18,877 nt of DNA from a virus (Duplodnaviria; Heunggongvirae; Uroviricota; Caudoviricetes): IMG/VR virus record IMGVR_UViG_2778261686_000011, one strand, 5' to 3'. The position numbers are program-made. This document shows, in pieces, positions 6,001 through 9,000 of this stretch. Within the stretch, counting starts at the first letter, position 1; every line of letters starts with the position of its first letter.

Positions 6001-9000
6001 AATAGTCAGGCGACCACCGCGATTGACATACATCGGCGTTTCGGTGGTGTCTTCTTCGGAAATTTTCCCGCGGTTAGTCGGGCGAACATATGAGAGTTTG
6101 TGTTTGATTTTCACACGGTTCTCATCAAACGGTTCGATTTCCAGGTTGAGCGAGACCTTACCTTTGGTTTTCGTGTTCATCACACCGGAAGCGACTTCAC
6201 TGAGAACTGCGCCGATTTTGGTTTCAAATACGCCGCCGTCCAGCTCCCCGATAAATGCCTGCACATCAGTACTGCGTTCGCTAGCCATTTTGCTGCTCCT
6301 CATCATATCGACCCTGCAAGGTCGGTTGGTTTCTCCACAAAACAGAGAAGAACACCTGCGGTGGCAGCCGCCCGGGTGGATTGGGTTATGAGCCCGTCGT
6401 CCGGTGATGCTCTTCTCTGTTTTGTAAAAAGAGCGGTACCAGCCGGAAGCAAGTGTACAAACTGGTACCGCCAAAGCAGTGGCTGTTGTGGTGGGGTTGT
6501 CACTTAAGCGTATGGTCAACCTGACAACCCGGTGCCACTAATGGGGTAAGGATAACCCCGCCATACTTACCGCCGCGCCATTTCGCGGATTACCACAACG
6601 CTGAGAGCACTTAGCCAGTTATGGCACCACACTTTGTCGCGGCTCCATAAATGCCCTCATCGTTGCACCCTGGTCTCTTCCCAGGCGTCAAACCGAATCG
6701 CCACGCTGGTTAGGCGTCTTATCAGCATCATCATTGACTTGCACATTCCGGCTACCTGGTTTGTTTGCCCGAGCAAGGAGTGGATTGTCCCCTTTAACGT
6801 CCCCAGACCGCTAACGACGCATGTGCCATACGCCGTGTTACAACCAAATTTTGTTAGTACCTTGTTTGTAGGTCTGGAAAGAAAGATAAAATGAAGTTGC
6901 GCATTATGCAAGTGTTTTTATTGCGAGATATGCAATTTGGTGGGTAATGAAAAGCCACCTTCTGGTGGCTAATTGATGTTGAGGTAGGGGGTTAATTGTG
7001 TCGCTTAAGGGTTTGTGACTGACTGATTAAGACCTTTCCAAAGACCATAAACCGGTGTTCGTTTTCGCTGGTAATTCCCCATTCGCGGTAAATCTGATTA
7101 TCAGAAATTACCAGCAGTTTATCAGGTATCATTTGCAGTCGTTTGACGTAAATTTTATCATCAAAACCAAATACATATATACCATCTCCATCAAACTGAT
7201 TGATACTGATATCAACGAAGATGAGATCTCCTGGCTCAATGGTTGGACACATACTGTCCCCACGAACGTTGATAACTTTAATGTGATTTGCTGGTCGTCC
7301 ACCAAACATCGATACAGCATTATCAGTTCTGTATTCAATGGCATGAATCACATCAATGACATCACCGCCCTGGATAAGGCCATTTCCCGCACTGGCACTG
7401 ACATCCAGCATTTCAATACGGAATACATCCTTCACCTGCGCAACATCCTCACTAATACTGTTTTTACATACAGTATTACTTTTGAGGTCTGAGGTAAAGA
7501 GATCAGCAATATCAACACCTAAGCTCCTGGCAATATTACTCAGGGCTTGTTCAGTGAATTGTTTCTGCTTACCTGTTTCGAGGCGCGAGATATTCGCCGC
7601 ATCCACTCCTATTGCTTCAGCGAGATCGGCGATTTTCATGTTCTTCGCCTGGCGAAGTTGTCTGACTCGATTTCCTATGTTCATGCGTTTATTACATTTC
7701 TTTATTGCGCGTTAAGCAAATCAACTTGCGCAAAATATTTGCGTGAAATAATATGCTCATCACGCAATATGTGGAGGTTATATGCAATCACCATTACGGA
7801 ATGTGCGTAAGGCGCACGGATTTACTTTGCAGCATGTTGCTGCGGGCGTTCAGGTCAATCCAGCGACGCTGAGTCGTATTGAAAGACTGGAACAAATTCC
7901 ATCTATCGATCTTGCAGAACGTCTGGCCAATTTTTTTAAGGGTGAAATCAGCGAAATGCAGATTCTTTATCCGGCACGTTTTCAATCTAGCCAAAACCAG
8001 AATGGGTTTAAACCACAGGAACAGGAGGTAAGCCGTGGGTAAGCATCACTGGAAAGTGGAAAAACAACCTGAGTGGTACGTGAAAGCTGTCAGAAAAACT
8101 ATCGCGGCATTGCCTGGGGGTTACGCTGAAGCTGCTAACTGGCTGGATGTAACAGAGAACGCTTTATTCAACCGCCTTCGTGCAGATGGCGATCAGATTT
8201 TCCCGCTGGGATGGGCAATGGTTTTACAGCGCGCGGCTGGCACTCACTACATTGCGGATGCTGTCGCACAGTCTGCTGGTGGGGTGTTCGTATCGCTTCC
8301 TGAAATTGAGGAAGTAGAGAACGCCGATATAAACCAGCGCCTGCTGGAAGTCATCGAACAGATCGGGAATTACTCAAAGCAGATTCGTTCGGCAATCGAA
8401 GATGGGGTCGTGGAGCCACACGAGCAGACAGCAATTAATGATGAGTTGTATCTGTCAATTTCGAAGCTCCAGGAGCATGCAGCACTGGTCTACAAAATCT
8501 TCTGCGCTCCAGAAAAGAGTGACGCCCGCGAGTGTGCAGCTCCGGGCGTCGTGGCGTTTTGTGTCTGTGGAGAAACTAACGCATGAACAGTTTAACGGCA
8601 AATAACCGTTTGTCGCAACAGCTGGTGGTCAGTGTCGCTGAACACCTGTTGTTACGGCATGAATGCAGATTACCAGATCACCTGGCTGTAAGTAACCACA
8701 GAGAACTTTACCTGACTGTGGGGGGCGAGTTGTGCAGGAACTTAACCGCTGGTTTCGTGACGGAAGAGGGCTTTATGTCCATGTTATTCGTTGGGAGCCA
8801 GAAACACAGCGCGTTATCTATCTTCGCAAAGACTACCCGCATGAGTGCTTTAGTCCTTTGTGGAAATTCAGGCGTGATTTTGTTGAGTGTGAAGGACCAC
8901 CAGCACATTGATTCTGCCATTCCGGGACGTTACACTGTTCAGGCACCTTATAAAACGGGTGCCGGGCGTGGAAACCCGGAATTCACCAAAGCGCACAACC

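Follow-up and report, generated by a model that had tools for sequence, protein, structure and literature searches.

A covarying pseudoknotted RNA and a mosaic of probable RNA cassettes left of cI in an N-less lambdoid phage

The gene-free stretch between cI and the early-left operon

The IMG/VR virus record IMGVR_UViG_2778261686_000011, a stretch of 18,877 nucleotides (nt) from a member of the Caudoviricetes that is referred to below as the window, carries 608 nt (6289–6896) between its cI-like repressor gene and the first gene of its early-left operon whose leftward strand is rich in RNA structure. Most prominent among these structures is a pseudoknotted RNA of about 180 nt at 6660–6842 on the minus strand, here called cassette A. 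Leftward transcription would pass in turn through cassette A, a long helix with a cargo loop (the stalk), a cloverleaf-like RNA with a DicF-like hairpin and U tract (cassette B) and a 25-base-pair (bp) hairpin (cassette C) before reaching the first gene.

On the right, this stretch is bounded by an S24 cI-like repressor gene (6992–7684, minus strand), recognized by its open reading frame (ORF) and domain, with operator palindromes TTGCnnnnnnnGCAA on either side of it. Two OL-like palindromes of direct-repeat family D1 stand at 6897–6911 (TTGCGCATTATGCAA) and 6921–6935 (TTGCGAGATATGCAA), and the motif TTGCn7GCAA recurs at 7705–7719 and 7753–7767, between cI and cro. A putative PL promoter can be placed at 6883..6911 on the minus strand, with a -35 element TTGCAT (6911–6906), a 17-nt spacer and a -10 element TATCTT (6888–6883), from which transcription would start near 6876; homology to phages with other immunity types stops near 6855. 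On the left, the first early-left gene (5926–6288, minus strand) codes for a 120-amino-acid protein of the SfV orf32/ST64B sb37 family, and its start at the ATG 6288–6286 agrees with the annotation of mEp460 and SfV. It is preceded by a Shine-Dalgarno sequence, GAGGAG (6301–6296, minus strand), noted by reading the sequence, and by a small hairpin (6326–6307, minus strand) that taken alone folds no better than shuffles (z -0.6).

The original prediction had described the region as about 600 bp of hairpin-dense DNA without a frame of more than about 30 amino acids from an ATG, and had proposed that it encodes a structured RNA in a phage with a Q-type late antiterminator and no N gene. As worded, the statement on frames is right, the sole ATG ORF within 6289–6896 being one of 20 amino acids (6651–6713, plus strand). 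Non-ATG ORFs reach 86 amino acids (TTG, plus strand), 84 (TTG, minus strand) and 66 (GTG, minus strand), a TTG extension of the downstream gene's frame goes up to 6519, and the annotation of mEp460 calls two plus-strand 'hypothetical proteins' in the corresponding region. The Q-type antiterminator gene (PF03589) lies at 14463–15215, and no N-like ORF is found among the ORFs of the whole window. All the inverted repeats that had been listed are present: 6337–6361/6401–6425 (a 25-nt arm with 15 perfect bp inside), 6433–6442/6462–6471 (10 bp, 19-nt loop), 6494–6502/6522–6530 (9 bp, 19-nt loop), 6531–6544/6615–6628, and GGGGT/ACCCC at 6543–6559, the last found by reading the sequence. The leftward strand of the region folds at -236 kcal/mol as against -199 ± 5.7 for dinucleotide shuffles (z -6.5), the plus strand at z -4.3 against its shuffles. 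Together with the covariation and the homologous RNA described below, the leftward fold bears out the claim of a structured RNA; as for its extent, the gene-free leader of about 600 bp stands, the single element gives way to a mosaic of cassettes, and the conserved RNA at 6660–6842 had been overlooked.

Structure, covariation and distribution of cassette A

Read leftward, cassette A consists of helix P1 (6835–6815), a long-range helix P2 with a variable insert (6811–6804 with 6758–6751), a conserved joint formed by the 19-nt core GGUAGCCGGAAUGUGCAAG (6756–6738), helix P4 (6717–6703) and helix P5 with the loop GAAGAGA (6685–6669), all on the minus strand. The 7-nt loop of P4, CUAACCA in the window and YUCACCA in the alignment of viral relatives, pairs with a GGUG 14 nt downstream to form a pseudoknot (6711–6708 with 6694–6691, minus strand). 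The window copy retains all the helices and has the pseudoknot in a compensated AACC/GGUU form; it scores 144.8 bits (E 1e-42) against model R2, with which no second copy is found in the window.

The core, as GGTAGCCGGAATGTGCAAG, is invariant in five relatives found by BLAST. Used as an exact query it recovered more than 120 viral contigs, amounting to 112 unique sequences and 45 clusters at 93% identity, and the 45 viral-contig representatives were aligned with MAFFT (alignment A4). This alignment supports the four helices P1, P2, P4 and P5 as well as the pseudoknot: 96.9% of the cells are paired and 12 of the 28 pairs show changes on both sides, which none of 500 shuffles reaches, and slid-register controls are 27–52% paired. 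Its G-U pairs at 13:23, 36:98 and 10:26 are compatible with the leftward strand only. A second set, alignment A7, came from bacterial genomes, where the core occurs in 24 loci of about 20 species (all Enterobacteriaceae or Erwinia except two metagenome-assembled genome bins), giving 21 distinct copies. Model R2 scores 23 of the 24 loci at 108–174 bits, and A7 has 98.8% of its cells paired and 11 compensated pairs, with a pseudoknot that is 100% paired and in which four sequences, some of them from other lineages of the family (L140, L156), have A:U for C:G. Against these figures it must be set that both viral and genome loci were gathered by exact match to the 19-nt core, making its invariance and the taxonomic range partly a matter of construction, and that A7 was fitted to model R2.

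A coding role for cassette A is unlikely and was rejected, given that its stop-free frames differ among copies, that its indel lengths are mostly not multiples of three, and that its alignment has no three-base periodicity. A protein-coding frame conserved among the homologues, the finding that the original prediction had set against a structured RNA, is thus not seen, and the comparative alignment for compensatory changes that it had proposed supports the helices in relatives. The covariance-model search it had also proposed gave no family: Rfam 15, run at its gathering thresholds on the whole window and at E ≤ 10 on 5900–7100, has no family match in the region, the four matches at E ≤ 10 on 5900–7100 having E values of 0.35–5.4 and lying far under their gathering scores. 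Searches of the literature with the core and hairpin sequences returned no description, and svsR/co293, considered as a counterpart, proved to be another RNA, located at the cI 3′ end. Compared by eye in the alignments, the 5′ and 3′ flanks of cassette A show no covariation with one another that would speak for a helix closing it; the invariant GGCACAU at the tip of P1 could pair with an equally invariant AUGUGC, both sides being without variation. Taken together, these comparisons make it well supported that cassette A is a real folded RNA encoded on the leftward strand, and there is strong comparative support for an RNA family that neither Rfam 15 nor the searchable literature describes.

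Cassette A is present in 1376 of 5426 complete E. coli genomes (25%), with 256 places on plasmids and no annotated feature under it among the matches listed; its carriers include many Stx2c/Stx2a and cdt phages, P1 and epsilon15-like phages. None was found in HK022, HK639, SfV, PPompW, ST64B or phiNP. Its neighbours fall into distinct settings. In lambdoid contigs of several immunity types, a same-strand ORF of 218–240 amino acids ends about 100 nt upstream of it, those inspected having cI-like helix-turn-helix/LexA-type sequences, and likely -10 elements stand 0–40 nt ahead of P1; in two contigs (L040, L048) with HK022-type operators it occupies the position of HK022's putL. In P1 and D6-like elements its start lies 14 nt downstream of a tRNA-Ile(CAU) CCA, and in P1 it is found between trnI and ban. 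In epsilon15-like phages a tRNA-Arg(UCU) follows at a fixed distance, and in phiV10 and SPN1S the end of the stalk is the start of the tRNA-Arg. The genes downstream of cassette A fall into unrelated protein clusters, and it is therefore not a leader for one gene. Set against SfV, cassette A together with the stalk is cleanly inserted or deleted, the flanks on both sides being conserved. In three further contigs (L090, L034, L047) cassette A is followed by a hairpin and then by a perfect or near-perfect rrn-type boxA (TGCTCTTTAACAA in L090), an order of hairpin and boxA that is also the boxB-boxA order of rRNA leaders.

Two side observations concern P1 (L004). Between cassette A and ban, directly after cassette A, stands TTTTCTGGTGATGAC, which resembles the DicF 5′ seed UUUCUGGUGACG; and an annotated 'dicF-like region', homologous to window 6493–6588, lies 2 kb upstream of cassette A in the same operon.

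The stalk, cassettes B and C, and the leader as a whole

A sensitive BLAST comparison with phage genomes splits the 608 bases into pieces, each of which recurs in non-coding DNA of otherwise unrelated phages: 6289–6493 in SfV and SfII, 6477–6599 in Qin-type prophages and P1, 6593–6836 in epsilon15-like phages (phiV10, TL-2011b), and 6672–6849 in P1, P7 and D6. The whole arrangement is near-identical in mEp460, the cdtI phage, Stx2c phages and Stx2a_WGPS2, in whose examined annotations there is no N gene left of cI.

The stalk (6596..6665, minus strand; fold z -3.4) pairs CAACGAUGAGGGCAUU (6665–6650) with AGUGCUCUCAGCGUUG (6611–6596) around a 38-nt cargo hairpin. Its helix occurs in 103 loci representing 35 distinct strand pairs, mostly of 14–22 bp and up to 27 bp, among which are the compensated versions GAUGAGAGCAUU / AGUGCUCUCAGC, GGUAAGAGCAUUG / CAGUGCUCUUUCC and AUGAGAGCGCACUUC / GGAGUGCGCUCCCAG. 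The cargo varies across loci from roughly 10 to 100 nt and sometimes holds tRNA-like pieces; in L105, L003 and L009 these have a T-arm-like GGTTCGATTCC or GGTTCAATTCC and acceptor-like ends, with no ARAGORN call. In the Qin-type prophage PPompW the helix takes the form AAGCGCACGG / CCGUGCGCUU, directly before GGUUGUGGC. The literature describes a 190-nt DicF species whose 5′ end is made by RNase III, and counting 137 nt upstream from the Rfam DicF match of PPompW leads into the 3′ strand of its helix, so that the RNase III-made end of the DicF precursor would probably lie in the PPompW/Qin stalk helix.

Cassette B (6427..6599, minus strand; 173 nt) is the counterpart of the DicF precursor and of sRNA-17, a small RNA (sRNA) of 193 nt mapped by rapid amplification of cDNA ends (RACE) and Northern blot in a mEp460-type prophage of E. 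coli K1 RS218 (Front Microbiol 2020, PMC7719688). In a consensus fold it forms a cloverleaf-like four-way junction closed by GUUGUGGU (6599–6592) with ACCACAAC (6492–6485); the closing helix of Qin, GUUGUGGC / GCUGCAAC, is a compensated version of this one, and the arms in P1 are compensated too. Its end is a DicF-like 10-bp hairpin (6471–6462/6442–6433) with the tail UCUUUUU (6432–6426), both of which align with the DicF terminator hairpin. Window 6477–6599 matches the 5′ part of the DicF precursor at 87% identity in PPompW, directly upstream of its DicF match, and at about 93% in K-12 Qin. The 20-nt stretch with the DicF 5′ seed is absent from the window in the alignment, and the Rfam DicF model (RF00039), with which PPompW scores 76.7 bits, has no match at E ≤ 10 in 5900–7100; on these two grounds the identification of cassette B with DicF itself was rejected. 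What the window does share with the DicF precursor is its setting, namely the precursor body, the counterpart of the upstream stalk, and the end hairpin with its U tract. The comparison of sequences thus supports cassette B as a DicF-like sRNA, and its DicF-/sRNA-17-like part can be regarded as a new version of known RNAs. ARAGORN finds no tRNA or transfer-messenger RNA in the window at default thresholds, and none on relaxing them until 60%, where the calls are noise-like. At 80% it calls the cloverleaf upstream of DicF in PPompW (L008 2043–2121) as 'tRNA-Ser(gga)' and leaves the window copy uncalled; the body of the DicF precursor may be tRNA-derived.

The sequence of sRNA-17 was reconstructed from the supplement of its paper and from mEp460 (PMC7719688). 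It equals mEp460 L001 3178–3370, reading in the PL sense from GUUGUGGUGAAUGCG to GGUACCGCUCUUUU, and extends from GUUGUGG as far as the U tract. By the coordinates in the paper 392 nt remain on one side of it and 567 nt on the other; in mEp460 these are the distances that separate it from the cI stop and from the YfdQ gene, which fits only a PL-sense RNA. The operators, PL, leader start and cassette A of mEp460 are the same as in the window, and both end positions have their counterparts there, GUUGUGG at 6599 corresponding to 3370 and the U-tract end at 6427 to 3178. The published sequence as such is not matched by the window, which shares its first 8 nt and last 67 nt only. Window 6792–6813 (minus strand), inside P2, reads GTTAgcggtctggggacGTTA and fits the ArcA direct-repeat pattern by which the sRNA-17 paper defines the promoter of that RNA, and may be the site meant there.

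Cassette C (6332..6430, minus strand; -49 kcal/mol, z -8.0) is a candidate RNase III site, whose 5′ strand (6430–6406) takes in the U tract of the DicF-like hairpin and pairs with 6356–6332. SfV, Salmonella ST64B and Citrobacter phiNP conserve cassette C, its apical domain and the terminator hairpin ahead of it; compensation is seen in their terminator stem (GGCGGUACC to GUCGGCGUC), which covaries in ST64B, and some compensations also occur in the long stem. As these three phages lack cassette A, the terminator and cassette C are to be assigned to the module of the downstream gene.

The reading that best accommodates these patterns, and one that can be held with moderate confidence, is that 6289–6896 is the untranslated leader of the early-left (PL) operon, a non-coding RNA operon built from the exchangeable cassettes A, stalk, B and C. 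Cassette A would fold cotranscriptionally. An RNase III cut in the stalk would free it as a discrete RNA of about 190–215 nt, and the same cut would produce the 5′ end, G6599, of an RNA of about 173 nt, freeing GUUGUGGU to close the cloverleaf. The 3′ end of this second RNA would be set at the U tract, where the DicF-like hairpin would cause partial termination, leaving the early-left genes to be reached by read-through polymerases only, on whose transcripts the U tract would be drawn into cassette C, a second RNase III-type site beside the ribosome-binding site. The two candidate RNase III sites, the stalk (6665–6650/6611–6596) and the hairpin 6430–6406/6356–6332, find support by inference, the former because it is the counterpart of the Qin helix at the 5′ end of the DicF precursor and the RACE 5′ end of sRNA-17 maps there. 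The processing steps as a whole are proposed on the same footing: structures, covariation, homologies and cassette boundaries were computed here, while the RNA ends (RACE) and the RNase III dependence are taken from homologues. In phiV10 the order of elements matches the window: cassette A is followed by the stalk, by a genuine tRNA where the window has the cloverleaf, and by a DicF-like hairpin-terminator, the unit closing with two terminators. This suggests that cassette A, the hairpin and the tRNA (or tRNA-like RNA) are each independent products.

Several points weigh against this leader model. The model rests on sequence and homologues, and the cleavage by RNase III is carried over from homologues; the RNase III position in Qin is a matter of arithmetic (190 - 53 nt) and not of a mapped nucleotide, and a consensus promoter scan gave no match at the proposed PL. 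The genome closest to the window, CP015912.1, is listed as a 'degenerate' sRNA-17 sharing 67 nt only, and the authors of sRNA-17 assign it a promoter of its own under ArcA control, not processing of a PL transcript (PMC7719688); on that view transcription could begin at the GUUGUGG 5′ end.

The motif GUUGUGG (6596–6599 junction in the window; also in SfV, mEp460, Qin and phiV10) forms a recurrent joint between different cassettes, being found at the 5′ end of tRNA-Arg, at the start of sRNA-17 and at the start of the DicF precursor. It is able to pair either upstream, in the stalk, or downstream, in the closing helix of the cloverleaf, and may serve as both a processing site and a recombination joint. 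The layout suggests that phages exchange non-coding RNA cassettes at this common junction.

A separate observation concerns the isrK/C4 locus of the window. The Rfam isrK and C4 antisense RNA genes (8943–9019 and 9044–9131) lie inside an ORF of 383 amino acids (8583–9734, plus strand), in which a Pfam 'Phage_ASH' match at amino acids 117–213 covers exactly the two RNA genes and is followed by a Rha domain; the layout recurs in mEp460, the cdtI phage and Stx2a_WGPS2. Two explanations offer themselves: an over-called ORF, with the true antirepressor beginning downstream of C4 in the manner of P1 ant, or an Ash family that in part represents RNA genes in translation.

The role of cassette A and its comparison with known systems

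As regards function, its sequence and settings incline one to see cassette A less as a leader for a particular gene than as a stable RNA, complete in itself, that would bind a host macromolecule, the many invariant unpaired bases and the presence in three unrelated phage types suggesting a defined partner. It is possible, with appreciably less probability, that it works as a processive antiterminator in cis, in the way of HK022 put or the Bacillus EAR RNA, replacing the missing N protein and riding with RNA polymerase through the leader, the DicF-like terminator and later terminators. Its place would suit this, within about 0–40 nt of the likely PL start after a cI-like gene, including contigs with HK022-type operators, and with a hairpin and U tract interposed before the first gene; no N gene lies left of cI in the three annotated phages that carry cassette A, the mEp phages were all collected as Nus-dependent, the first helix shares ACGGCG...CAUGCGUCG..AGCG with put stem I, and three contigs have the hairpin with a perfect or near-perfect rrn-type boxA after cassette A. 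However, the put model has no match, the window holds a single copy with none on the rightward operon, and its boxA matches are not above chance. Moreover, cassette A is missing from SfV, ST64B and phiNP, which share the terminator and the first gene, the phiV10 unit stops at two terminators after its tRNA and leaves little to read through, and in P1 cassette A sits 2 kb inside an operon. Were an effect on elongation nevertheless its function, which is doubtful to the same degree, cassette A would be a new RNA class acting on the elongation complex without a phage protein, an RNA-only antiterminator or anti-Rho device unrelated to put. This would explain how the N-less mEp460, Stx2c and cdtI phages transcribe through long untranslated, terminator-bearing leaders, and how P1 and epsilon15-like phages do the same in their RNA-only tRNA units.

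That cassette A is a riboswitch or ribozyme, sensing a ligand or cleaving itself and so setting the fate or ends of the leader transcript, is improbable: about 50 invariant nucleotides, many of them unpaired, around a pseudoknot are typical of aptamers and ribozymes, and the ends of cassette A coincide with processing junctions beside tRNAs, yet no Rfam riboswitch or ribozyme model matches, there is no covarying expression platform, the downstream genes differ wholly between contexts with no shared regulated function, and RNase E, RNase P and RNase III account for the junctions. More improbable still is that the region consists of decayed tRNA/sRNA islands or an N gene kept by linkage, or codes for small proteins as annotated in mEp460. 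The mosaic make-up with junctions at GUUGUGG, the tRNA-like fragments in cargo loops and some stop-free frame across the element of about 170 nt in 61 of 68 copies could be read in that way, but every helix has compensatory changes across genera, the open frames vary by copy with indels mostly not in threes and no codon periodicity, and a homologous RNA has been detected experimentally. Whichever function it has, cassette A stands at the head of the early-left operon in N-less lambdoid phages and offers a concrete RNA to examine for antitermination, host-protein binding and tRNA/sRNA maturation.

Several parallels might be struck with known systems. To HK022 put, cassette A is similar in its position, directly downstream of PL after cI and OL in a lambdoid phage without N, and in a short sequence of the first helix, a 9-mer and two short words being recognizable by eye as common with putL. 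It differs in having about 180 nt with five helices and a pseudoknot as against about 70 nt with two stems, and in being a single copy in the window that occurs also in P1 and epsilon15-like phages beside tRNAs. Membership of the put family was rejected: a put covariance model (R1), built from putL, putR and five put-like RNAs and run with filters off, has its best match in the window at 1367–1439 (E 0.94) and none at 6660–6842, where the put consensus (stem I, stem II, conserved G35/A9 and U28) is accordingly not matched in sequence and structure. Of the options offered by the original prediction, the DicF-like RNA thus survives on homology and the RNase III sites by inference, while put falls as a matter of family membership.

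The lambda N/nut system finds no counterpart either, as the window has no N-like ORF with an arginine-rich motif. A boxA scan of the window gives 14 matches versus 14.0 expected, the only boxA-like match in 6289–6896 being the U-tract tail of the DicF-like hairpin, which is not conserved in relatives. Candidates for an N-like protein elsewhere, SfV orf33 and small ORFs upstream of cassette A in other contigs, were set aside for want of an arginine-rich motif. The rRNA operon leaders with their RNase III stalks and the T4 tRNA cluster with its stable species 1 and 2 RNAs present a leader element, a cargo stalk and a tRNA cut from one transcript. The order of elements is alike, and some cassette A relatives have a perfect rrn boxA; unlike them, the window shows no boxA, its cargo is small and there is no sequence relationship, so that the likeness is one of architecture only.

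With the dicBF operon of Qin the window has in common the closing helix, the cloverleaf arms, the terminal hairpin with its U tract and the long upstream helix; it differs in lacking the seed stretch, in its hairpin loop and in sitting in a PL leader with no dicB after it. With sRNA-17 of mEp460 it shares the place in the leader, the operators, cassette A upstream, the GUUGUGG start and the last 67 nt with hairpin and U tract, whereas the central part of about 110 nt is another cassette, the body in the window being of the Qin type. In the sRNA-17 paper the DNA upstream, where cassette A lies, is taken to be the promoter region of the sRNA (PMC7719688); the stretch so regarded holds a structured RNA. 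Seen side by side, the DicF precursor and sRNA-17 resemble two forms of a single type of cassette, each bordered by the same processing helix.

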